The position numbers and the translations under genes are program-made. Of a stretch of DNA of 24,000 nt, positions 413 to 18,011 are shown in pieces (the stretch's first letter is position 1; each line of letters opens with the position of its first letter). The DNA comes from an archaeon GW2011_AR15 (GTDB lineage: Archaea > Nanobdellota > Nanobdellia > Woesearchaeales > GW2011-AR15), in NCBI GenBank assembly GCA_000830295.1, contig CP010425.1:214033-238032 (forward strand), read 5' to 3'. Under the pieces are notes generated by a model. The model worked only from the letters and a program-made list of their open reading frames with translations, was not told where the DNA came from and made no database searches.

Positions 413-1711
413 TTATACTTTGGCAAGCTCCTCTTCTATCACAGCCTCAAATGCTGAGTAAGGCTGCGCTCCCCTGACACTCTGTCCTATCACTGTTTTT
501 CCGTCAGCCTGTATCACACCAACTAAAAACCCTGGTGTGCCTGAAACTCCTGCACTCGTGCCTGCGCTGAAGTCGCTCTGGACCTCTGCCTGGTATTTTC
601 TTGAGTTAATACAATTGTTGAACAGTGATGTGTCCATGCCGAGCTCTTCAGCCCATGCCTTGTAGTTATCAGCACTTAATGAGTCCTGATTTTCGAACAG
701 CTTGTTATGGAATTCCCAGAACATTCCCTGTTCGTCTGCGCATTCTGCTGCCTCTGCTGCAGGTGTTGCCTGAGGATGTATGCTGCTCAGAGGAAAATCT
801 CTGTAAACAAACCGGATTTTCCCTGTGCTGATATAGTTCTGCTGTATTGAAGGCAGTGTCTCACTGTAAAACCTGCTGCAGTATGGGCACTGGAAGTCTG
901 ACCACTCTATTATCACAACCTTGGCTGATGCACTTCCCTTTGACGGATCATCATCTATGCTGCTTGTGTATTCTGTAGCCTGCGTTGGCTGTGTAGGCTG
1001 AGTAGGCTGCACTGGTGTTGGCTGTGCCTCCCCTGAAAGATGCCTGTCAATAACAGCCTTCAAATTGTCATATGGCTGTGCCCCCACAACTTTCTCTCCG
1101 CCTATGAAAAATGTAGGCGTGCCTGTAACTCCCCTGCTTGTTCCCTCATTGTAATCTGCCTGGACAACAGATGCCTTTTCCTTGCTGTCATAGCAGTCAT
1201 TGAATTTTGCAGTATTAAGGCCAAGATCTGCTGCGTGCTTTTTCAGGCTGGCTGTATCAAGGGCTTTTGTCTCAAAAAGCCTGTCATGATATTCCTCAAA
1301 TTTGCCCTGGTCTCGCGCACACTCTGAAGCCTCTGCTGCCTGCTGTGCCAATGGGTGCAGGCTGCTCAGTGGGAAATGCTTGTATACAAACGTCACCTGC
1401 CCCTCATACTCATCCAGCAGCTGTTTCACTGTTGGATATGCTCTCTGGCAGAACGGGCACTCAAAATCTGAAAACTCCTCAATAAGCAGTTCTCCATTGC
1501 TGCCTGTATTTGATTTCTTAAGGCTGTTGAGAAGTGACCCGACGCCGTTGCCCAAACCAAATCCGTTTGTAAGTACAGACAGGACCAACAATACTCCCAG
1601 CACAATTGCATAAGTCTTCCACATATCATCTTTAGGAGCTGCTTTCCCGGATGCTCCTTTTGCGGATGATCTTCTAGAAGCAGTTGACTTCTTTTTAGTG
1701 TTTTTAGCCAT
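413..1711 (-). CDS. Membrane-anchored tandem DsbA-like thiol:disulfide oxidoreductase with two thioredoxin-fold domains
   Basis: 432 aa with a basic N-terminus and one TM helix (YAIVLGVLLVLSVL). Two paralogous DsbA-like halves of about 150 aa carry CPFC (nt 1448-1459) and CPYC (nt 878-889) active sites. Each half also has a GTP(T/G)F cis-Pro loop motif. The halves are joined by a PTPVQPTQPTQPTQ linker (nt 974-1021). A GGGGG Shine-Dalgarno-like box lies about 10 nt upstream of the ATG. Confidence 0.85.
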   Translation of the reverse strand: MAKNTKKKSTASRRSSAKGASGKAAPKDDMWKTYAIVLGVLLVLSVLTNGFGLGNGVGSLLNSLKKSNTGSNGELLIEEFSDFECPFCQRAYPTVKQLLDEYEGQVTFVYKHFPLSSLHPLAQQAAEASECARDQGKFEEYHDRLFETKALDTASLKKHAADLGLNTAKFNDCYDSKEKASVVQADYNEGTSRGVTGTPTFFIGGEKVVGAQPYDNLKAVIDRHLSGEAQPTPVQPTQPTQPTQATEYTSSIDDDPSKGSASAKVVIIEWSDFQCPYCSRFYSETLPSIQQNYISTGKIRFVYRDFPLSSIHPQATPAAEAAECADEQGMFWEFHNKLFENQDSLSADNYKAWAEELGMDTSLFNNCINSRKYQAEVQSDFSAGTSAGVSGTPGFLVGVIQADGKTVIGQSVRGAQPYSAFEAVIEEELAKV

Positions 1712-2110: not shown

Positions 2111-2503
2111 TTACTGTAAAAACGCCTCGCACCCCGCTTTCTGTGCAAGTTCCAGCAGGCCTCTTTCGCCATTAAGCTCTGAGCCGTCTGCAAATCTCCA
2201 TGTAGGGTAGCCTGTTATACCCTCATTCTGGCACAGTTCTGTCTGCGTCCTCTGGGCTGTTGAGCATTCAACATAGCCGCCTGCAGCAGCAAATGTATCC
2301 CATGAGTCCCCGAACAGTTTCTTATTGTTCTGGCAGTGCGGGCACCACCATGCGCCATACATCACAACCCCGTTATCAGCAAGACACTGTGCGAGTTCAT
2401 CATACTGGCCTGAGGAGCTGGCCGCGGATCTGAAAATCAAAAATCCAACAATAGCTACAGCAATTATAACAACGTAAACCAGATAGCTATTTTTCTTTTT
2501 CAT
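2111..2503 (-). CDS. Membrane-anchored thioredoxin-like protein resembling the Trx-like domain fused to VKOR homologues
   Basis: 130 aa with an N-terminal TM helix (LVYVVIIAVAIVGFLIF). The pattern MYGAWWCPHC..KKLFG..YVEC..C..GITGYPTW matches my memory of the Trx-like domain of cyanobacterial and plant VKOR homologues. The CPHC site is at nt 2333-2344. Confidence 0.75.
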   Translation of the reverse strand: MKKKNSYLVYVVIIAVAIVGFLIFRSAASSSGQYDELAQCLADNGVVMYGAWWCPHCQNNKKLFGDSWDTFAAAGGYVECSTAQRTQTELCQNEGITGYPTWRFADGSELNGERGLLELAQKAGCEAFLQ

Positions 2504-2617: not shown

Positions 2618-5600
2618 ATGAGGGGTAGGGCCCATGATAGTACTATGGATAACTCTATACAACTTTTGTATAAGAAAGCAGGCATAAGGAGAATTCTGTT
2701 TCTTGTTGCGCTGTGTTTCTTTGTCTATTTCATGTTCCTCACTGTTTTGCCCGGAAATGAAAGGGTGATTGTGTGCGCTGCCAATGATAATTTCTGCACA
2801 GCATCAGACGGCGATACGGATGCAGGAGCATGCACTGCATATGGTACCTGTAATGGCGGTCCGGGATGGAGTCTGGGTTCTGGAGATTGTACTGGAGACG
2901 CCTCGTGTGCAACAACATCATGCTGTGGTGATGACGCGGGTGAAGCTGTTGTAGCGGAATCCTCAAGCACAGATACTCCTTCAGGATATAATGATGCTGT
3001 AACGGCATGCTGTAATGTCGCTACAGACTGCAATTACAATGGCGCCTGTGTAGCAACAGGAAGCGCAAGTTCTGCTTCCACACCGGATAAAGCCTACTGC
3101 GGGACAGGCAGCACATGGTACGGAGGGGATTACTCAGAAGATGCATGCACTGCTGTTGCAGGAACCGGCAGCTGGAATATAGGCGGAGAAATAAACACCA
3201 CTGTCTGCTGCGGCGACGACTCAGGAGAAAATAAAAATACAAGACAAGTAAGCGAAATCTCTATTGATAATGGGTTTGCTGATAATTCAAGCGATAAAGC
3301 ATGCTGTCTGGCAGGTGATTCATGCATCAGCTCGGGCACATGCTACGCAAACGGGACCTCACCTGCGGATGTGGACGGCGACGGAGATAATGATTACTGT
3401 GATGCAGGAACATGGCAAGACTGCAATTCAGATAGTGACTGTTCTCCCGGACTAATTTGCTCCTCAAACGACTGCACAGATGTAAACTTCCCTTATTTCA
3501 CATCAATACCTGGTGATGAAACAACAACATACGGTAATTGGGAGGGAGTTGATTTTAATGCTGATGATGCTATAGGCGTTGATACTTATGATGTTAACGA
3601 CACCAGATTTACAATAAACTCATCCGGGTTCCTTGACGAAGACTCCGCAGTGTCTGCCGGGGCCTACAGTTTAAATGTTTCTGTAAATGACACATCTGGA
3701 AATACAAACTCAACAATATTCACACTAACTGTAAACAAAGCAACGCCTTCACTCAGTCTGAATTTCAATAGTACCAGTGGGAATACCACAATATATACAG
3801 GAAGCTCTATGGTATTAAACGGCAGTATTGTGTCAGGGGACAGCGGCGCTGTATTGCAGCTCTATAATAATGGAACCCTGGCCGATCAGGCAGCCGGCGC
3901 AGTAATCAATGATACTTTATTCGGCAGTGCAGGTACGTATAACATAACTGTAGTTTACATGGAGAGCCAGAATTACACTTCGGGGAGCCTGTCATACTTC
4001 ATAGGTGTCAGCGACCCTGATTTAACAGCTCCATATTTCACATTAATCCCCTCAAATGCAACAATAACCTACGGAAGCTGGGCAGGTGTTGATTTCAATG
4101 CTGATGATAACATTGACATCGGCGACTATACTGTCAACGACAGCAGGTTTACAATAAGTTCCTCAGGGCTTCTTGATGATGTCTCTGTGGTTGCTGCCGG
4201 AACATACAGCCTGGATATCACTATAAATGACACATCTGGAAATACAAACTCAACAGTATTCGGGCTGACTGTCAACAGGGCAGCGTCTTCGCTTACCCTA
4301 ACCGTGAACAGCACATCAGGCAATTCAACTGTGCATCTAGGAAGCGCCATACTGCTTAATTCTACTATAGTATCAGGAGACACTGGTGCAACACTCCAGC
4401 TGTATAATAACGGGACATTAATCAATCAGGGAGCCGGATCAATAAGCAACAATACCCAGTTTAGCAGCAGCGGGCTGTATAACATAACTGCAGCCTATCC
4501 TGAAACCCAGAATTACACTTCAGGCAGCCAGACATATTATGTAACTGTTGCTGACATACTGCAGCCTTACTTTACCGCAATACCTTCCAATGAAAGCATA
4601 ATATACGGACAGAACTGGTCAGGCGCTGACTTTAATGCCACAGACAGCAATGGATTTGACTCCTATTCTGTAGCTGACAGCAGGTTTACAATAAATTCAT
4701 CAGGATTCCTTGATGACGCCGCAATACTTAATGCCAGCGAGTATCTTATTAACATAACAATAAATGACACTTCCGGGAATTATAACTCAGCTATATTCAA
4801 CCTGACTGTGTTCGCTGATTCAGATGGCGACGATATTGCAGATATAAATGACACTTTAAACGGAAATGAATCAACTCCTGCTGTCTCAGGGATAAACAAC
4901 CTGAATATAACCATAAGAGGGAACTCTTCAAGAGGAAGCTTCCAAGGCAGGCATCCTGTTGTAATCAAGGAGGATTCAGATGTTCTTGTAAACTTCAGCC
5001 ATAACTTCACAGCAGCACATCTTAACCTGAGCAAAGTGCACATAACAAAAGGGGATAACTTCATACTCCTGAATTTCTCAGGCCAGCTGCTGACAAATAA
5101 GACAGTGTATTTCGATGACAGCAGCTATATCAGCCTGTGCGTGAAAGATGCGCCTGTCTCTGCATCGTCTGATATAAGCGCCGCATGCACAGGAGCCAAT
5201 GAGACAGACTTTACATCATGCATCGGCAATTCAACAGGGACAACAATAAACAATATCACATGCTATGATGAAGGCTCAAGGTTTAAGTTTGACAACCTAC
5301 ATCATACAGGAATTAAGGGAAGCGCTGCTGCGGAAGAAGAGGAATCAGGAGGGAGCAGTTCTGGGGGCAGCAGCTCAGGGGGCTCTTCTGACCGCAAGTA
5401 TGATTTCTCTGTTACGCCTGAAAAGACCACGCTAGGAATAAAGCAGGGCGAGACAAGGGAATTCACATTAAGGGTTGCAAACAACAACTCATATAATATT
5501 GTGGTGAAAGCATGGTCAACCCTGGCTGAATTTATGACCCTCGAAGAGATAGATTACCATATCAGTGCAAATGACTATCAGGATATTGCTGTTATTGCTG

Positions 5601-6244
5601 CTGTCCCCAATGAAACAGAGCCGAAATCATATCTCGGTGATATAGTCTTCAGCTCCGGCAGCAGGACTCAATTTATTGATATAAGGATTGACGTTTTCCC
5701 CAAAGGCAGCCTGTTTGATATCATAACAGAGATGGACCAGAGATACGCTTCTGTCCTGCCAGGAGAATACCTGAAATTTGATGTCACTTTATTTAAATTC
5801 CTAGATGTTGCAACAGAGGATGTAACTATTGTATATCTAATCAAAGACACCTCCGGAAATGTGCTGTGGAAAGAGAGCGATACAAGGGCAGTGCACAAGG
5901 AGCTTGAGTACAACAGGGAGCTGAGGATTCCCTCAGACCTGCCTCCCGGGGATTACCTTCTGGAGACAAGCGTCAATTACCAGGGCAAGGCCGCAACCTC
6001 AGAACTCTCATTTACAGTTGTAAGCCCTGCTCCTGAGGCTCCGCCTGAAAACTATCTCTTCCAGATAGAGCTTCCTGCAATAAAGATTCCTGCAGAATTC
6101 TTTACTTCAAGAGCATTCATATCTGCCTTCCCAAGAGTGCTGCTTGTGGTGATTATTTTATTGTCAGGGTTAAAGCCTCCTGGAACTGCAAGGAAGGGAA
6201 AAAAAGCAGGAAAGGGGAATAAAAAGAGAAATTCTAAGTCATAG
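2618..6244 (+). CDS. Large cysteine-rich, sequon-dense cell-surface protein (putative adhesin or S-layer-associated glycoprotein)
   Basis: 1208 aa with an N-terminal hydrophobic helix (ILFLVALCFFVYFMFLTVL). About 25 Cys fall within aa 53-286. There are 2.5 tandem repeats of about 180 aa (aa 292-731). A SGGSSSGGSSSGGSS linker is followed by two further beta-rich segments. The C-terminus has a TM helix (VLLVVIILLSGL) and a basic tail (KGKKAGKGNKKRNSKS). I counted about 48 N-x-S/T sequons by hand. An alternative start is the ATG at 2645. Confidence 0.85.
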   Translation: MRGRAHDSTMDNSIQLLYKKAGIRRILFLVALCFFVYFMFLTVLPGNERVIVCAANDNFCTASDGDTDAGACTAYGTCNGGPGWSLGSGDCTGDASCATTSCCGDDAGEAVVAESSSTDTPSGYNDAVTACCNVATDCNYNGACVATGSASSASTPDKAYCGTGSTWYGGDYSEDACTAVAGTGSWNIGGEINTTVCCGDDSGENKNTRQVSEISIDNGFADNSSDKACCLAGDSCISSGTCYANGTSPADVDGDGDNDYCDAGTWQDCNSDSDCSPGLICSSNDCTDVNFPYFTSIPGDETTTYGNWEGVDFNADDAIGVDTYDVNDTRFTINSSGFLDEDSAVSAGAYSLNVSVNDTSGNTNSTIFTLTVNKATPSLSLNFNSTSGNTTIYTGSSMVLNGSIVSGDSGAVLQLYNNGTLADQAAGAVINDTLFGSAGTYNITVVYMESQNYTSGSLSYFIGVSDPDLTAPYFTLIPSNATITYGSWAGVDFNADDNIDIGDYTVNDSRFTISSSGLLDDVSVVAAGTYSLDITINDTSGNTNSTVFGLTVNRAASSLTLTVNSTSGNSTVHLGSAILLNSTIVSGDTGATLQLYNNGTLINQGAGSISNNTQFSSSGLYNITAAYPETQNYTSGSQTYYVTVADILQPYFTAIPSNESIIYGQNWSGADFNATDSNGFDSYSVADSRFTINSSGFLDDAAILNASEYLINITINDTSGNYNSAIFNLTVFADSDGDDIADINDTLNGNESTPAVSGINNLNITIRGNSSRGSFQGRHPVVIKEDSDVLVNFSHNFTAAHLNLSKVHITKGDNFILLNFSGQLLTNKTVYFDDSSYISLCVKDAPVSASSDISAACTGANETDFTSCIGNSTGTTINNITCYDEGSRFKFDNLHHTGIKGSAAAEEEESGGSSSGGSSSGGSSDRKYDFSVTPEKTTLGIKQGETREFTLRVANNNSYNIVVKAWSTLAEFMTLEEIDYHISANDYQDIAVIAAVPNETEPKSYLGDIVFSSGSRTQFIDIRIDVFPKGSLFDIITEMDQRYASVLPGEYLKFDVTLFKFLDVATEDVTIVYLIKDTSGNVLWKESDTRAVHKELEYNRELRIPSDLPPGDYLLETSVNYQGKAATSELSFTVVSPAPEAPPENYLFQIELPAIKIPAEFFTSRAFISAFPRVLLVVIILLSGLKPPGTARKGKKAGKGNKKRNSKS
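3491..4810 (+). repeat. In-frame tandem coding repeats: units 3491-4030, 4031-4564 and a partial unit 4565-4810
   Basis: Each unit starts with PYFT(S/L/A)IP. The periods are 540 and 534 nt. A 32-nt stretch is identical at 3684-3715 and 4224-4255 (taaatgacacatctggaaatacaaactcaaca). Confidence 0.9.
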
Positions 6245-6262
6245 TCCTGAAAGTTTAGCAAA

Positions 6263-6275
6263 GTTTTTATATTCC
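6263..6275 (+). promoter_or_regulatory. TATA-like box for the PAP2-like gene
   Basis: The sequence gtttttatattcc is centred about 25 nt upstream of the ATG at 6294. This is consistent with a leaderless transcript and favours ATG 6294 over TTG 6288. Confidence 0.4.
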
Positions 6276-6293
6276 CCAGAATAATATTTGGAT

Positions 6294-6740
6294 ATGAGTT
6301 TTTTAGGAGAGGTACTCACGAACAGGATAATTATAAGCGTAATCCTGACCTACATTGTAACAGGCGCCCTAAAGCTCCTTTTCTATTATCTTGGTACAGA
6401 TGAATGGAATTTTATGGTATTTTTCAGGACAGGAGGCATGCCAAGCAGCCATATTGCCTCTGTTACTGCTATGAGCGCCGCAATATACCACCTTGAAGGC
6501 GTCTCCAGTCTCTTCATTGTGGCGCTTATACTCAGCTCAATAGTGACTGTTGATGCAATCGGCGCAAGAAGGGCTGCCGGCCAGCAGGCTCAGGTCATCA
6601 ACAAGGTTGTTGATGAATTCAGGTATTTCAGGAAGTTCAGGACAAGGAGGCTCTATGAACTAATCGGGCATACCCCAAGACAGGCCCTTGTGGGATTTAT
6701 AATAGGCATTATAGTCGCGAGAATTGTCTTTATGTTCTAG
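6294..6740 (+). CDS. Divergent PAP2 / acid-phosphatase-related membrane protein (DUF212-type)
   Basis: The GGMPSSH motif and a polytopic hydrophobic profile are typical of the divergent PAP2 family. The ORF-track start at 6288 is a TTG, and the ATG is at 6294. Confidence 0.65.
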   Translation: MSFLGEVLTNRIIISVILTYIVTGALKLLFYYLGTDEWNFMVFFRTGGMPSSHIASVTAMSAAIYHLEGVSSLFIVALILSSIVTVDAIGARRAAGQQAQVINKVVDEFRYFRKFRTRRLYELIGHTPRQALVGFIIGIIVARIVFMF

Positions 6741-7198
6741 ATTAGTGCTATAACAATGCCAATGAACAGGTAGACGATATTATCCCTGACAGGAAGAATA
6801 AGGTTATAGGCTAAATTTTCTTTAGTGTCATAATATACTGATGCTGTAAGCAGCCCGAATATGAATATAAGGCCTGCTGCAAATGTGCCTGCTGTCTCAA
6901 ACAGTATCACTGCAAGAAGGCTGTATGCCAAAACATCATTATACGGCAGGTTTGATTTCACATCCCATAAAAAATACAGGACTGCAATTATCCCTGAAAG
7001 CGGTATTGAGATTGCAGGGCTTACTGCGAGGAACTTAAGGAAATAGAAGAAAACCAGGGACAGGACTACGGGCCTTGCAAAAATAAAGTATTTTTTCCCT
7101 GCTTTAAGCTCCTCTTTTGTGAAATGCGAGATTATTGTCCCGACCAGAAGCCCGGAATATGTTACCAGCAGGAGCAGGATATGGTTGAGTGTCAGCAT
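6737..7198 (-). CDS. Polytopic membrane protein of unknown function
   Basis: 153 aa with 4-5 hydrophobic helices. An A/T box (acaaatataaact) lies about 25 nt upstream. Its stop codon shares the CTAG palindrome with the stop of the convergent PAP2-like gene. Confidence 0.5.
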   Translation of the reverse strand: MLTLNHILLLLVTYSGLLVGTIISHFTKEELKAGKKYFIFARPVVLSLVFFYFLKFLAVSPAISIPLSGIIAVLYFLWDVKSNLPYNDVLAYSLLAVILFETAGTFAAGLIFIFGLLTASVYYDTKENLAYNLILPVRDNIVYLFIGIVIALI

Positions 7199-7233
7199 AG
7201 ATCTGTTGTTTTATTCAGAGTTTATATTTGTAA

Positions 7234-8388
7234 CTAAATTTTCTTAATATATCCCCTGACATATTTCAGTATCTCCTCTCCTGATGCTATGTTGAAGCTT
7301 ATTCCCCCTGCAGAATCGTGGCCTCCTCCTGAAAGCAGGGCGGCAGGGAACTCCTTCTTCAGCTTTTCCAGGAGGTCAACACCTTTAAAATCAACTCCGT
7401 CTGCCCTGTAGCTGATTGAATCTGCCGTAACTGCAAGCGTTATTTTGGGCCCCTCGACAAGCCTGTGGGATATCCCTATCAGTTTTGAGGATGCATATTC
7501 CCAGTCAGAGACAAGGCTTTTCTCTATTATGACTAATTTGAATTTTCCAAAATCCTCTATCTTTGCATATTTCTTTGCTGCTGCCCTTACTCTCTCTGTC
7601 TCCGCTTCAATCCTGGGATAGATTTCATTGATTATCCTGGTATTATTGGCTCCCGGCATGAACAAACCCTCAAGTATGTCTGTCCTCTCAGGGAATTTGA
7701 GGTAATAAGTATCATGGTCAATCACAGCTGCCCACTTCTCAAGCTCTTCTCTGGTGTATCCTGACAGCTTTACATACGCATCATTATCCTCTCCTGACGA
7801 CTTGTCAGCGACTCCTGAGAGACCCGGGAGATGCTCTATTCCCTTTAGTGCAGGGTCAAGTATGACAGCAAGTTCTGTTGCAAGTGCGCCTGCATTCAGC
7901 TCTGAGCCGAGCCCGAAAACATGAGGGTTCAGGAAGCTTACTGCCTCGTGCTTGTTTTCAGCATCGAACCTGTGGTGGTCTATTATTACAAATTCAATGC
8001 CGTATGTTTTCAGCCTCTTTATTGATGCCATGCTCTGCTCATTTGAGCCCAGGTCTGCAAGTATGATTAAAGGGGGCGTAGTGCTTTTTGAAGAAAGGAA
8101 ATTATTGAGGTCGCGCAGTGCATCTGTGTAATCATAGAATGGTGTCCTGCTGGACGTTCTCATAATGTTCCTGCTGTAGCCAATTGAATTCAGTGCTTTT
8201 TCAAGCACAAACCCTGCAGCATATCCGTCTACGTCGTTATGATGGCGTATTACTACGAACCTGTTCTCGGAAACAGCTTTTCTTATTACTGATTCTGCCT
8301 TCAGGAAAGCCTCTTTCATCTTTTCAAGGTTCCCGGAATCTATAAGAAAACCTTTCTTCCTGTCTTTCACAATGTCTTTTATCATCAT
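7234..8388 (-). CDS. DHH/DHHA1-family phosphoesterase (RecJ-like or NrnA-like)
   Basis: Motifs seen are HHNDVDGYAAG (motif I), ILADLGS (motif II), IIDHHR (DHH motif) and GGGHDSAGG (DHHA1). The likely start is the MMIKD ATG pair at 8388/8385. The ORF-track start at 8433 adds 15 aa overlapping the upstream ORF. Confidence 0.8.
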   Translation of the reverse strand: MMIKDIVKDRKKGFLIDSGNLEKMKEAFLKAESVIRKAVSENRFVVIRHHNDVDGYAAGFVLEKALNSIGYSRNIMRTSSRTPFYDYTDALRDLNNFLSSKSTTPPLIILADLGSNEQSMASIKRLKTYGIEFVIIDHHRFDAENKHEAVSFLNPHVFGLGSELNAGALATELAVILDPALKGIEHLPGLSGVADKSSGEDNDAYVKLSGYTREELEKWAAVIDHDTYYLKFPERTDILEGLFMPGANNTRIINEIYPRIEAETERVRAAAKKYAKIEDFGKFKLVIIEKSLVSDWEYASSKLIGISHRLVEGPKITLAVTADSISYRADGVDFKGVDLLEKLKKEFPAALLSGGGHDSAGGISFNIASGEEILKYVRGYIKKI

Positions 8389-8672
8389 CTTTCCAGAATA
8401 TTTCCGTAGTCCCTTTTTCCCGAGTCCTGCCACGGGCTGTGACCGTAATGGACAAGGAGGTCCACGCCGAGCCTCTTGACTTCAAGAGGGAGGTCGCAGC
8501 TGCCGTAGCATGAGCCGCCCCAGATTATTACCTGGGCCCCTGTCTGCTTTTCTATCTCTTCCTGCATTTTTTTTGCATCCGGCTTTATGCCGTCCGGAAG
8601 ATGAAGACAGACTGTCTTTGCTCCCTGCTTCTTTATCTCATCCACCAATCTCTTTATCTCAAGCTTATACAT
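8385..8672 (-). CDS. dph2: Truncated Dph2-like ORF: only the N-terminal ~90 aa of 2-(3-amino-3-carboxypropyl)histidine synthase; probable gene remnant
   Basis: The sequence YKLEIKRLVDEIKKQGAKTVCLHLPDGIK...VIIWGGSCYGSCD...LGVDLLVHYGHS aligns by eye to the first ~80 aa of archaeal Dph2. The ORF then ends after 16 unrelated residues. Full-length Dph2 is about 330 aa as I recall. The stop TGA overlaps the DHH start (AGATGATGA). Confidence 0.7.
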   Translation of the reverse strand: MYKLEIKRLVDEIKKQGAKTVCLHLPDGIKPDAKKMQEEIEKQTGAQVIIWGGSCYGSCDLPLEVKRLGVDLLVHYGHSPWQDSGKRDYGNILER

Positions 8673-16483: not shown

Positions 16484-17728
16484 ATGGATTTTTTGGACAA
16501 AATAAAACAGGATTTGCGTCCGGATACTTCAGCGCTTGTTGAAATAGGGATATTTGTAAAAGAGATAAACAAAGAAATTAAAAAAAGCAGGATAAAAGCC
16601 TCCTGTGTTGCAGGCGGCAGTGTTGCAAAAGGCACATTCCTGAAAGGCGATTTTGATGTTGACCTGTTTGTTAAATTTGATTACTCATACAAAGATAAGG
16701 ATATATCAAAGCTGCTCAAAAAAATTCTCAGGAAATTCAGGCCGGTAACTCTCCACGGCTCAAGGGATTATTACCAGATAAGGCATGACAGCCTGAATTA
16801 CGAGATTGTCCCTGTCCTGAATATAAAGAACCCTGAAAAAGCCCTCAATGTAACTGACATGAGCTTCATACATGTTGACTGGGTAAAGAAAAAGCTGAAA
16901 AAAGGGCAGGAGGATGAGATAAGATTAACTAAGAAATTCTGCAAAGTCATTGGGGTCTATGGTGCCGAATCATATATACAGGGATTCTCTGGGCATGTTA
17001 TTGACATCCTGATAGTGCATTACGGCTCTTTCCTCAATTTGCTGAAAGCCTCCCAGAAATGGAAGCCTAAATTAGTTATAGATGCAAAAAAGCACTACAA
17101 AAATTCCGCTGATGTGAAGTTCAACATCAACAAGTCAAAGCTGGAAGGGCCAATGATTGTTGTTGACCCTATACTGAAAACAAGGAACGCTGCCTCTGCT
17201 GTTTCCATGGAGAAATTTGAGCTGTTCAGGAAAAAAACAAAGGAATTCCTGAAAAAGCCGTCTGAGGAATTTTTTGTTGAAAAAAAGATAAGTGTGGAGT
17301 ATCTAAAATCGAAGTACAGGAAGCATCTTGTTGTGCTGAAACTAAAAGCAGGAAAAGGCAAGCCAGATGTCATCGGCAGCAGGATACTGAAAGCATTCAG
17401 GTTCATGGAATCAGAGCTGGCAAAAAAAGGGTTTGAAATAAAAAAAAGCGGGTGGCACTGGGACAAAAAGCAAAATGCGCTTGCGTGGTTTGTATTTGAA
17501 AATGCTGTCCTGCCTGAAACAAGAATTGCTGAAGGCCCCCCTCTCGAGATGAAAAAGGCATGCAGCGGCTTCAAAAAAGAGCATAAGAAAACTTTTGAGA
17601 AAAAAGGCAGGCTATGGGCGGAAATCAAAATAGAAAAGAGGGGGATTAAAAAGAATATAGAGGAGATTTCAAGGAAAAAATACTTCAGTGAAAAGATTGG
17701 ACTTGAAGCTATAGAAAAGTATTTATAA
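16484..17728 (+). CDS. cca: CCA-adding enzyme (archaeal class I tRNA nucleotidyltransferase)
   Basis: It has the VAGGSVAKGTFLKGDFDVDLFVKF nucleotidyltransferase motif and the downstream HVDW / GAESYIQGFSGHVIDILIVHYGSF region typical of archaeal Cca. 414 aa. Confidence 0.85.
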   Translation: MDFLDKIKQDLRPDTSALVEIGIFVKEINKEIKKSRIKASCVAGGSVAKGTFLKGDFDVDLFVKFDYSYKDKDISKLLKKILRKFRPVTLHGSRDYYQIRHDSLNYEIVPVLNIKNPEKALNVTDMSFIHVDWVKKKLKKGQEDEIRLTKKFCKVIGVYGAESYIQGFSGHVIDILIVHYGSFLNLLKASQKWKPKLVIDAKKHYKNSADVKFNINKSKLEGPMIVVDPILKTRNAASAVSMEKFELFRKKTKEFLKKPSEEFFVEKKISVEYLKSKYRKHLVVLKLKAGKGKPDVIGSRILKAFRFMESELAKKGFEIKKSGWHWDKKQNALAWFVFENAVLPETRIAEGPPLEMKKACSGFKKEHKKTFEKKGRLWAEIKIEKRGIKKNIEEISRKKYFSEKIGLEAIEKYL

Positions 17729-17750
17729 GTTATATTCTCTTCTCTTTATT

Positions 17751-18011
17751 ATGAAAAGATACATTGTTTTGATCTCGCTTGTCTTTCTGATTGCTGTTAT
17801 TTCCGGATGTGCAACAGATGGGAACTATTCTAATGAAAATAATGGGGCAGACACTAATGAAACTGCACAGGACGGGAAATGTTCGCCAAATAACGATATA
17901 GTCTGCACCATGGAGTACAACCCTGTATGCTGCAACGGCAAAACATACAGCAATTCCTGCGTTGCAAGGGCAAACTGCGCTACAGATTGTGTGGCTGGGG
18001 AATGTAGCTAG
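17751..18011 (+). CDS. Secreted lipoprotein with a Kazal-like serine-protease-inhibitor core
   Basis: The signal peptide ends in a lipobox-like ISGC (Cys20). The mature part, C44-x7-C52-TMEYNPV-C60-CNGKTY-SNS-C70, reproduces the Cys spacing and the CT(L/M)EY.P.C...KTY.N.C signature of Kazal domains. There are 8 Cys in the mature part. Confidence 0.7.
   Translation: MKRYIVLISLVFLIAVISGCATDGNYSNENNGADTNETAQDGKCSPNNDIVCTMEYNPVCCNGKTYSNSCVARANCATDCVAGECS

Follow-up and report, generated by a model that had tools for sequence, protein, structure and literature searches.

Kazal inhibitors are textbook animal proteins. Proteins of this type are best known in animals, have been catalogued in bacteria and are almost undescribed for archaea. 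To our knowledge, the prokaryotic homologues are present in databases and essentially unstudied, and we know of no characterisation so far of the single-domain Kazal lipoproteins of the Bacteroidota (Pontibacter, Hymenobacter, Rufibacter and others). The latter are annotated as 'Kazal-type serine protease inhibitor domain-containing protein' and carry a lipobox, a short linker and one Kazal domain in approximately 60–85 aa. Among the animal inhibitors, the classical type is represented by the ovomucoid third domains OMSVP3 of the silver pheasant (PDB 2ovo) and OMTKY3 of the turkey (PDB 1cho) and a non-classical type by AEI of Anemonia sulcata (PDB 1y1b). The leech-derived tryptase inhibitor LDTI (PDB 1ldt, 1an1), also non-classical, is a secreted animal protein with P1 Lys that acts on trypsin and tryptase. 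CrSPI-1 of the horseshoe crab (PDB 3qtl) is a two-domain soluble arthropod protein, and its domain 2 is a solved inhibitor structure, bound to subtilisin. Greglin, conkazal-M1 and schistosomin are four-disulfide non-classical Kazal proteins in which an additional helix at the C-terminus is tethered by the fourth disulfide; greglin and conkazal-M1 have been shown to inhibit subtilisin (PMC13101452).

For archaea, a COG labelled 'kazal-type serine protease inhibitor' and numbered arCOG10350 (Thaumarchaeota) already exists (PMC6697440), and DPANN Kazal singletons were noted but left unverified in a 2026 archaeal-fold survey (PMC13607799). These are likewise archaeal Kazal-like genes already catalogued, but as annotation labels alone, with architecture, synteny, cysteine frame and reactive site unanalysed. 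A literature search on bacterial Kazal lipoproteins and Woesearchaeota protease inhibitors returned nothing relevant (e.g. protease-inhibitor cocktails), and no biochemical data on prokaryotic Kazal proteins were found.

The Kazal gene described here lies in a window of 24,000 nucleotides, the whole stretch of archaeon GW2011_AR15 DNA that was analysed; its features are listed in Table 1. Translation of the ORF gives exactly MKRYIVLISLVFLIAVISGCATDGNYSNENNGADTNETAQDGKCSPNNDIVCTMEYNPVCCNGKTYSNSCVARANCATDCVAGECS, in agreement with the protein of the initial annotation, and the CTMEY codons that it had placed at 17904–17918 are read directly from the DNA. The identical 86-aa protein recurs in independent metagenomes, on at least 24 contigs, and in one NCBI MAG; anaerobic-digester samples are among those that carry the gene. 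Complete MAGs are available as GCA_013331675.1 and, for the orthologue, GCA_018670325.1. A spurious ORF was considered as a reading of this segment and rejected. The TATA-like sequence 5' of the gene may be its own archaeal promoter and would give a leaderless or short-leader mRNA; the orthologues at loci L010 and L017 have TTTATATA and TTTAAATA at an equal upstream distance. Counts from a sigma-70 promoter and terminator scan were at the level of shuffled sequence, the bacterial model being uninformative for an archaeon, and an Rfam scan of the window gave no matches.

Table 1. Features of the Kazal gene and of two thioredoxin-fold genes in the 24-kb window.
Feature	Position	Strand	Remarks
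Tandem DsbA/Thioredoxin_4 protein, membrane-anchored	413..1711	-	Thioredoxin_4 6e-60, DSBA 9.8e-44, two domains
Small membrane protein, thioredoxin fold, CPHC motif	2111..2503	-	Context of Kazal gene
TATA-box-like TTTATAAG	17722..17729	+	22–29 nt 5' of ATG; overlaps CCA-enzyme stop codon
Kazal gene, complete	17751..18011	+	ATG start, 86-aa precursor, TAG stop
Signal peptide, aa 1–19	17751..17807	+	n-region MKR, h-region YIVLISLVFLIAVI; read from sequence
Lipobox I17-S18-G19-C20	17799..17810	+	Cys20 predicted lipid-attachment residue; fits PROSITE PS51257-type rule
Low-complexity N/D/T/G-rich linker, aa 21–43	17811..17879	+	Predicted disordered, pLDDT below 50–63
Non-classical Kazal domain C44–C85, eight cysteines	17880..18005	+	Sequence, profile, predicted fold, cysteine co-occurrence
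Reactive-site loop P3–P3' C52-T53-M54-E55-Y56-N57	17904..17921	+	Putative P1 Met54, codon 17910–17912
Asn68 of T-Y-S-N-S-C	17952..17954	+	Invariant column in 126-sequence alignment; equivalent to ovomucoid Asn33

The Pfam Kazal_1 model (PF00050; the family is I1 in MEROPS) just recognises the whole protein (E=2.2e-4, a marginal 21.6 bits where the gathering score is 21) and gives 24.8 bits for the isolated domain, the match spanning profile positions 1–31 of 49 only. Orthologue P0088, at 18.2 bits, is under the cut-off. Searches with phmmer are more extensive in their matches: 1126 at E<=1e-3 among 1.84 billion representatives, chiefly multi-Kazal proteins, and Kazal inhibitors exclusively in the PDB. 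The best of the PDB matches are CrSPI-1 (1.8e-6) and the Anemonia elastase inhibitor (3.6e-5), and silk protease inhibitor 2 aligns out to the closing GEC. When a profile made from eight domains of the same sub-type was run against the PDB, all 32 of the sequences found were Kazal inhibitors, with CrSPI-1 domain 2 again the best at 2.9e-11. Across an alignment of 126 relatives, little or no variation is seen at T53, Y56, P58, Y66 and N68 or at the cysteines. An NCBIfam scan of the 86-aa protein found nothing beyond sub-threshold lipoprotein-signal matches. By profile, alignment and predicted fold, the AR15 protein is a genuine Kazal domain, and the Kazal core proposed in the initial annotation is supported by all three.

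The likeness to ovomucoid is closest in the first half of the domain. The third-domain sequence given in the initial annotation is reproduced in the PDB alignment, and the C-x7-C-x7-C spacing is, as had been claimed, identical; TY-x-N-x-C is also shared. The next loop is C-x9-C in the AR15 domain and C-x10-C in ovomucoid, and Cys61 stands where ovomucoid has Gly25. OMSVP3 and OMTKY3 differ further in their C-x2-C spacing between CysIV and CysV and in their longer helix and C-terminus. CrSPI-1 domain 2 aligns without gaps across SVCTEEYDPVCVEGKIYGNRCMQSHFC and shares the C-x7-C-x9-C-x5-C spacing, but has Val in the place of Cys61 and Glu at P1, and lacks the C-x3-C-x4-C tail. The Bacteroidota lipoproteins share CTM(E/Q)Y(N/D)PVC...GKTYSN.C with the AR15 protein; they differ in being bacterial, in passing the Pfam cut-offs easily, and in their six-cysteine C-x7-C-G-C frame, which has neither CysV nor the terminal C-x4-C.

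AlphaFold2 models have pLDDT values of 92–96 across aa 51–86, and the domain-only model has a mean of 87. Strands are predicted at 59–61, 64–66 and 80–82 and a helix at 69–74, all with pLDDT above 90, which is the short helix and small three-stranded sheet of the Kazal fold. With few exceptions, Foldseek matches the models to Kazal or follistatin-type domains, and LDTI from its trypsin complex ranks first (rmsd 1.1–2.0 Å, TM 0.73–0.83 over 38–41 columns, probability 1.0); the Foldseek E-values are weak, at 0.04–0.1, because the domain is tiny. The superposition on ovomucoid third domains that the initial annotation had in mind is poor, with a TM of approximately 0.45 and an rmsd of approximately 5 Å, compared with a TM of 0.75–0.83 to LDTI. 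The C70-x5-C76 spacing, the length of 42 residues and the lower TM to ovomucoid than to LDTI set the domain apart from the classical sub-type (ovomucoid, PSTI), which has C-x2-C between CysIV and CysV, a long helix and about 50–56 residues. Therefore, as modelled, the scaffold is that of a compact non-classical Kazal domain. LDTI shares its hairpin-helix-strand architecture, about 40 residues long, and the position of its reactive loop. The cysteines of LDTI number six, CysI lying at -2 and CysV at +4; in the AR15 protein these two lie at -8 and +6, and a further CC...C pair, Met at P1 and a lipobox signal are present. The description of the domain as an atypical truncated Kazal does not hold, since the helix and closing strand are predicted to be present and superpose on LDTI; a truncated domain was rejected in favour of a full compact LDTI-like scaffold.

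The precursor has cysteines at 20, 44, 52, 60, 61, 70, 76, 80 and 85, all as originally reported. Homologues of CysII, CysIII, CysIV and CysVI align directly in the PDB, profile and family alignments. The assignment of CysI (C44) and CysV (C76) draws on the AEI alignment and on co-occurrence across domains: a cysteine at -8 upstream co-occurs with one at +6 downstream, and domains without CysI are also without CysV. The AEI cysteine with which C76 aligns is one that we take to be CysV (C34), a partner in the shifted I-V bond. AEI otherwise differs in having six cysteines, CysI at -4 and a longer C-terminal segment, and in being an animal protein. Cysteine frames were sorted by a spacing-based classification, which replaced column-wise tabulation on the HMM alignment; the latter was too noisy, as the positions of CysI and CysV shift. 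A C-x4-C ending is found in essentially all of 75 domains with a CC doublet, and a single-cysteine ending is typical of domains without one. The co-occurrence pattern suggests the pairs C44–C76 (I-V), C52–C70 (II-IV), C60–C85 (III-VI) and C61–C80, and the doublet C60–C61, which the initial annotation had left uninterpreted, marks a sub-type whose likely fourth disulfide is C61–C80. Greglin, conkazal-M1 and schistosomin likewise combine eight cysteines with a Kazal core. The putative extra bond of the AR15 domain runs from CysIII+1 to CysVI-5, unlike the helix tether of greglin and conkazal; only one residue follows CysVI, so that a C-terminal extension is absent, and the predicted fold contains no additional helix.

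The reactive-site loop aligns to CTLEYR and CTMEYR of ovomucoid third domains, CTMQYD of the Anemonia elastase inhibitor and CTEEYD of CrSPI-1. It has the composition of a canonical loop, with Cys at P3, Thr at P2 (Thr or Pro in canonical loops), Glu at P1' and Tyr at P2', together with Asn68. The ovomucoid counterpart of this residue, Asn33, braces the reactive loop. The ovomucoid-like loop of the initial annotation is borne out by the silver-pheasant third domain (PDB 2ovo, 1iy5), in which C-T-M-E-Y is the reactive site and the P1 residue is Met18. AEI also has Met at P1, as does the L010 orthologue, in a loop that reads CTMQYDPVC. With P1 as Met, the expected targets would be subtilisin-, chymotrypsin- or elastase-like proteases. 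In the three-domain orthologues the P1 residues are K/E/M (L017) and E/E/M (L018), and such variation among tandem domains is typical of multi-headed inhibitors.

The Kazal gene has as neighbours genes for a class I archaeal CCA-adding enzyme, L37ae, Pcc1 and S3Ae, and the names given to relatives of the CCA-adding enzyme are without exception Nanoarchaeota, Candidatus Woesearchaeota or unclassified archaeon. The gene belongs to a Woesearchaeota/Nanoarchaeota-like (DPANN) archaeon, which upholds the original assignment to an archaeon. In at least four related lineages the slot between the genes for the CCA-adding enzyme and a VTT (DedA) protein holds a Kazal gene, encoding a lipobox protein with one domain (as in L010) or three (as in L017 and L018). 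Identity to the L010 orthologue is approximately 69% in the Kazal domain, on a par with the housekeeping neighbours GyrB (74%), the CCA-adding enzyme (63%) and VTT (67%). The linker cannot be aligned among the orthologues, unlike the domain. The GC content of the Kazal gene tracks that of its host in the four genomes (27–43%), and the gene is therefore long-resident and not contamination. In two related genomes the slot has no Kazal gene, so the gene is dispensable. In L016 the slot is occupied by a large cysteine-rich surface protein.

Beyond these orthologues, a profile search found 423 proteins, and most of those with names are annotated bacterial Kazal proteins, mainly of Bacteroidota. The view that Kazal domains are overwhelmingly eukaryotic is thus out of date. 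An ancient transfer of the gene from bacteria or protists is possible, and would not alter its present nature. A scan of genome contigs with the whole protein gave merely signal-peptide look-alikes (Alkalicoccus, Sutterella).

These observations make it fairly probable that the protein is a membrane-tethered canonical Kazal inhibitor with P1 Met, directed at subtilisin-, chymotrypsin- or elastase-like proteases and guarding the cell surface. After export, the signal peptide would be removed at the lipobox and Cys20 lipid-modified, and a flexible acidic and polar linker of about 23 residues would tether the protein to the membrane's outer face. The C-terminal 42 residues would fold as a compact non-classical Kazal domain made up of beta-hairpin, short helix and third strand, held by three canonical disulfides and the C61–C80 bond typical of the CC sub-type. 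With Asn68 as its brace, the exposed loop C52-T-M54-E-Y-N would enter the active site of a serine protease in the manner of a substrate (the standard Laskowski mechanism). Surface proteins would in this way most probably be shielded from proteases that neighbours or hosts secrete in protein-degrading anoxic communities.

The lipid anchor in this reading is taken from a PROSITE PS51257-type rule: a positively charged n-region, a hydrophobic h-region, a lipobox of the form [LIV..][ASTV..][GAS]-C and the Cys at 15–35. The lipobox-like ISG-C20 of the initial annotation satisfies it, as do P0088 (C16), L017 (C18) and P0012 (C33, or C19–20 from an internal Met), the orthologue lipoboxes being IVSC, LSAC and LTSC. 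There is a lesser but appreciable chance that the protein is exported without a lipid, either as a soluble secreted inhibitor freed by SPase I from an ordinary signal peptide or with its membrane anchor uncleaved. Pfam LPAM_1 gives the 86-aa protein 10.7 bits, far under its threshold of 20, no lipoprotein-processing gene is visible in the 24-kb window, and lipoprotein biogenesis in DPANN archaea is still uncharacterised. Against this, an equivalent N-terminus is present in all four orthologues, with [ILV]-[SVA]-[GSA]-Cys retained just after the h-region despite diverged surroundings, and 81 of the 119 best matches of the profile search share the lipobox architecture, their named members being almost all bacterial Kazal proteins. 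An origin outside the archaea, by bacterial contamination, chimeric assembly or very recent horizontal acquisition, is effectively refuted. It would account for the closest named proteins after the archaeal orthologue being Bacteroidota lipoproteins, and DPANN Kazal assignments were called possible artefacts in the 2026 survey (PMC13607799), but the gene is flanked by archaeal genes on contigs of up to 1.16 Mb in many independent assemblies, with synteny in four diverged genomes and a GC content matching each host.

The target of the inhibitor could also lie within the archaeon, as a secreted or surface subtilase of its own that is inhibited for self-protection or zymogen control. Secreted proteases are in general often paired with dedicated inhibitors, and the Kazal gene runs in the same direction as the housekeeping genes with which it is closely packed, and its inheritance is vertical. 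This is nevertheless unlikely, since no protease gene was found within approximately 10 kb of the gene at any of the four loci (Pfam scans covered all neighbours in the window and at L010), the Lys, Glu and Met P1 residues of the three-domain orthologues suggest broad-spectrum cover in place of one cognate enzyme, and the gene is lost in close relatives. It is more improbable still that the fold serves as a non-inhibitory module for binding or adhesion to a host cell or ligand, as in proteins of the follistatin, agrin and SPARC type. Foldseek does also return Kazal-like domains of follistatin, FSTL3, SPARC and OATP, DPANN archaea rely on cell-cell contact, and the L016 slot has its large cysteine-rich surface protein. 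The best sequence and structure matches, however, are to the true inhibitors LDTI, CrSPI-1, AEI and ovomucoid, and the conservation of the inhibitor-specific T-P1-E/Q-Y and the bracing Asn with a variable P1 is the signature of reactive-site evolution rather than of a binding module. A membrane-tethered inhibitor of external proteases is the reading that we prefer.

This reading can be extended, doubtfully, to an interaction factor that is lineage-specific and that Woesearchaeota-type DPANN archaea inherit vertically: a lipid-anchored Kazal inhibitor array with one to three heads, stabilised by a previously undescribed CysIII+1–CysVI-5 disulfide, that would neutralise host or community serine proteases at the surface of the symbiont and be needed to survive on or beside protease-secreting partners. 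If true, it would be the first protease inhibitor with a defined function in DPANN archaea, and the first prokaryotic Kazal protein of which this could be said. At least one DPANN Kazal case is now shown to be bona fide: the gene family is archaeal and conserved, its reactive loop is intact, it varies in domain number and P1, and it has a distinct eight-cysteine framework. The known mechanism of inhibition is unchanged by this. At 46–66 residues the protein is small and easily expressed, and could serve as a probe of the extracellular proteolysis that ultra-small, surface-exposed symbiotic archaea face in anoxic communities that degrade protein; the compact, extra-stabilised domain is also a possible new inhibitor scaffold. 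In the same window, the tandem DsbA protein is plausibly an extracytoplasmic disulfide-forming enzyme for cysteine-rich surface proteins such as the Kazal protein.

The reading frame that the initial annotation had interpreted as an archaeal Kazal-type lipoprotein is real, and its translation is identical at 86 aa. The protein begins MKRYIVLISLVFLIAVISG-C20, then has a polar linker and the domain C44-SPNNDIV-C52-TMEYNPV-C60-C61-NGKTYSNS-C70-VARAN-C76-ATD-C80-VAGE-C85-S. The placement of the CTMEY codons and the ovomucoid sequence given for comparison also agree with the DNA and the PDB alignments, respectively. The sole spacing difference from ovomucoid is in the CysIII-CysIV loop, which is one residue shorter and has Cys61 in place of the usual Gly. 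In the window and in two orthologous loci, L010 and L017, a TATA-like octamer precedes the Kazal start codon at a conserved spacing of about 22-32 nt. These octamers suggest that the gene may be transcribed from a promoter of its own into an mRNA with a short leader or none. A Ser/Phe-rich low-complexity frame elsewhere in the window overlaps a 106-aa ORF on the opposite strand and is probably not a real gene.

Coordinates of features in the window and in related loci
Feature	Position (nt)	Strand	Sequence
Membrane-anchored tandem DsbA/Thioredoxin_4 protein	413-1711	-	window
Small membrane protein, thioredoxin fold, CPHC	2111-2503	-	window
1208-aa surface protein: Cys-rich N-terminal region, ~150-aa repeats, C-terminal TM anchor	2618-6244	+	window
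TATA-like A/T octamer, overlapping stop codon of upstream gene	17722-17729		window
Kazal gene	17751-18011	+	window
CTMEY codons	17904-17918	+	window
Ser/Phe-rich ORF, 151 aa	21018-21473	-	window
TATA-like A/T octamer, upstream of Kazal ATG	about 5971-5978		L010
TATA-like A/T octamer, upstream of Kazal start codon	about 4092-4099		L017
Three-domain Kazal gene, 165 aa	4124-4621		L017
Three-domain Kazal gene (P0012), 166 aa	2610-3110		L018
DUF4215/MopE-like protein, 835 aa	8650-11157		L016
Kunitz/Kazal lipoprotein (P0019), 439 aa	263-1582		L019

The archaeal protein carries a genuine Kazal domain. The HMM match proposed as a check is present, just over the cut-off, with the whole protein scoring 21.6 bits against Pfam Kazal_1 (E=2.2e-4; gathering score 21) and the isolated domain 24.8 bits. 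Every phmmer match among all PDB sequences is a Kazal inhibitor, the best being horseshoe crab CrSPI-1 (1.8e-6) and the Anemonia elastase inhibitor (3.6e-5), followed by silk protease inhibitor 2, leech-derived tryptase inhibitor (LDTI), PSTI and many ovomucoid third domains (E about 0.02-0.05). A profile was also made from eight domains that share the sub-type; its 32 PDB matches at E<=1e-3 are without exception Kazal inhibitors. Its top match, CrSPI-1 domain 2 (2.9e-11), aligns with the archaeal domain without gaps and has an identical C-x7-C-x9-C-x5-C spacing. Against 1.84 billion representatives, phmmer gave 1126 matches at E<=1e-3, with multi-Kazal proteins predominating. The single-domain archaeal proteins are labelled 'hypothetical' because their scores, 21.6 and 18.2 bits, lie at or under the Pfam cut-off. 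The reactive loop is ovomucoid-like: its C-T-M-E-Y is also the loop sequence of OMSVP3 from silver pheasant (2ovo and 1iy5 among the matches), in which P1 is Met18, as known from the work of Laskowski.

The AlphaFold2 model, from an alignment of 126 sequences, has a pLDDT of 92-96 over residues 51-86 (mean 87 for the domain modelled alone), with a hairpin (59-61/64-66), a helix (69-74) and a third strand (80-82). Foldseek matches in the PDB are nearly all Kazal or follistatin-type domains. The top match is LDTI bound to trypsin (rmsd 1.1 Å over 38 columns, TM 0.73-0.83, probability 1.0), whereas ovomucoid third domains reach a TM of only about 0.45. Because of this difference, the predicted scaffold is a compact non-classical Kazal with helix and third strand, rather than the truncated one first proposed.

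Cysteine-spacing classes were assigned to the Kazal-like domain instances of 157 retrieved proteins. A Cys directly after CysIII (CC type) is found in 75 distinct instances, essentially all with a terminal C-x4-C; the non-CC instances, several hundred in number, typically have a single terminal Cys. The N-terminal Cys and the Cys that follows CysIV shift together, with -8 paired to +6 and -2 to +4, the latter being the LDTI pattern. Domains without an N-terminal Cys, such as the first domains of the proteins P0012 and P0022, have no +6 or +4 Cys either. C76 aligns with CysV (C34) of the Anemonia inhibitor. From co-occurrence and homology, the predicted disulfides are C44-C76 (I-V), C52-C70 (II-IV), C60-C85 (III-VI) and an extra C61-C80. 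Four-disulfide Kazals are already known in greglin, conkazal-M1 and schistosomin, where the extra bond holds an additional C-terminal helix that the archaeal protein lacks (PMC13101452). The CC-type frame is also present in many multi-domain proteins whose signal peptides are eukaryote-like (P0016, P0017, P0023, P0031, P0035, P0044 and P0043). The last, on a 1-kb single-ORF contig (L020) from JGI sample 3300019040, has the motif ANCATDCV-G-C in common with the window protein. Bacteroidota single-domain Kazal lipoproteins (P0003-P0006, P0158-P0276) have a different frame with six Cys, C-x7-C-G-C, without CysV. This frame implies that CysI would pair with the Cys two residues past CysIII, a topology undescribed to our knowledge.

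Besides the Kazal gene, the window has genes for a class I CCA-adding enzyme of the archaeal type, for S3Ae, for a subunit of RNase P (Rpr2-like) and for a DHH protein of the RecJ/GAN-like kind; L37ae and Pcc1 follow just downstream. The closest relatives of the CCA enzyme that carry a name are all listed as 'Nanoarchaeota archaeon', 'Candidatus Woesearchaeota archaeon', 'Candidatus Nanoarchaeia archaeon' or 'archaeon'. These names point to a Woesearchaeota/Nanoarchaeota-like DPANN host. At least 24 contigs, one of them 1.16 Mb long, encode a Kazal protein identical to this one; their sources include NCBI MAG GCA_013331675.1 and several digester metagenomes. Judged by composition, the gene is long resident in this lineage, because its GC tracks that of the genome in four cases (43.7/43.4, 29.7/27.2, 29.3/27.0 and 42.7/39); the same tracking rules out contamination or recent transfer.

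The closest relative, P0088 (81 aa, 'hypothetical protein HN789_01915 [archaeon]'), shares its architecture and eight-Cys frame with the window protein. The locus around it (L010-L014, GC 27%) shows synteny to the window, with GyrB(-) and CCA(+), then Kazal flanked on either side by two extra genes, and after these VTT/DedA, a membrane protein of 200 aa and L37ae. Identities to the window are 74% for GyrB, 67% for VTT, 63% for CCA, 53% for the 200-aa protein and 40% for the whole Kazal protein, of which the domain is about 69% identical and the linker unalignable. The CCA to VTT/DedA interval is a variable slot among related archaea. It holds the Kazal gene alone in the window, and Kazal with 240-aa and about 503-aa unknown genes in L010 (intervals 3749-5969 and 6250-8488), L017 and L018, the last two having three-domain lipobox forms. 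L016 has a Cys-rich surface protein instead, and no Kazal motif was found in any frame of the L015 slot. The single-domain proteins are the counterpart of domain three in the three-domain forms, the one with Met at P1; P1 is M in both single-domain proteins, K/E/M in L017 and E/E/M in L018. The first domains of the L017 and L018 forms lack CysI and CysV, keeping the CC...C-x4-C cysteines.

The best-supported prediction is a membrane-tethered canonical (Laskowski-type) inhibitor. The loop C52-T-M54-E-Y-N would enter the active site of a serine protease whose S1 pocket is hydrophobic, such as a subtilisin-, chymotrypsin- or elastase-like enzyme. A soluble protein is the alternative to lipid anchoring; a PROSITE-type lipoprotein rule (n-region K/R, uncharged h-region, [LIV..][..][GAS]-C, Cys at 15-35), holds for 4/4 archaeal orthologues. 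Lipobox and Kazal occur together in 81 of the 119 top profile matches, whose named members are almost all bacterial, mostly Bacteroidota (Pontibacter, Hymenobacter, Rufibacter); the bacterial members are already annotated as Kazal-type inhibitor domain proteins in NCBI and UniRef. The domain could also be a non-inhibitory adhesion module; a constant framework with a changing P1, as seen in these sequences, is typical of canonical inhibitors. For such an inhibitor, shielding of the exposed surface from foreign proteases is favoured over control of one cognate enzyme, because no protease gene adjoins the Kazal gene in any locus (Pfam scans of window and L010 neighbours) and the tandem forms have several different P1 residues. 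Both observations argue against an endogenous protease as the target.

Prokaryotic Kazal domains as such are already catalogued, with arCOG10350 for Thaumarchaeota (PMC6697440) and, in a 2026 survey, Kazal-type inhibitors among DPANN-unique singleton folds, an assignment left unverified there (PMC13607799). No biochemical study of prokaryotic Kazal proteins was found in the searchable literature. What is new is the confirmation that the archaeal gene is real, its syntenic conserved family in Woesearchaeota-like archaea, the one- to three-domain variation with shifting P1, and the eight-cysteine CC-type frame. Given the Kazal homology, fold, lipobox rule and archaeal host, the initial interpretation was essentially right. 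It places a well-known inhibitor family in an unusual host, with a function accessible to simple biochemistry.

P0019 is a metagenomic lipoprotein (lipobox ISGC) in which one Kunitz/BPTI domain is joined to six Kazal domains. In the window, the tandem DsbA-like and CPHC proteins adjoin the 1208-aa surface protein. This arrangement suggests that the three genes may form a system for making disulfides outside the cytoplasm of a DPANN anaerobe, the two thioredoxin-fold proteins being a plausible route to such bonds.
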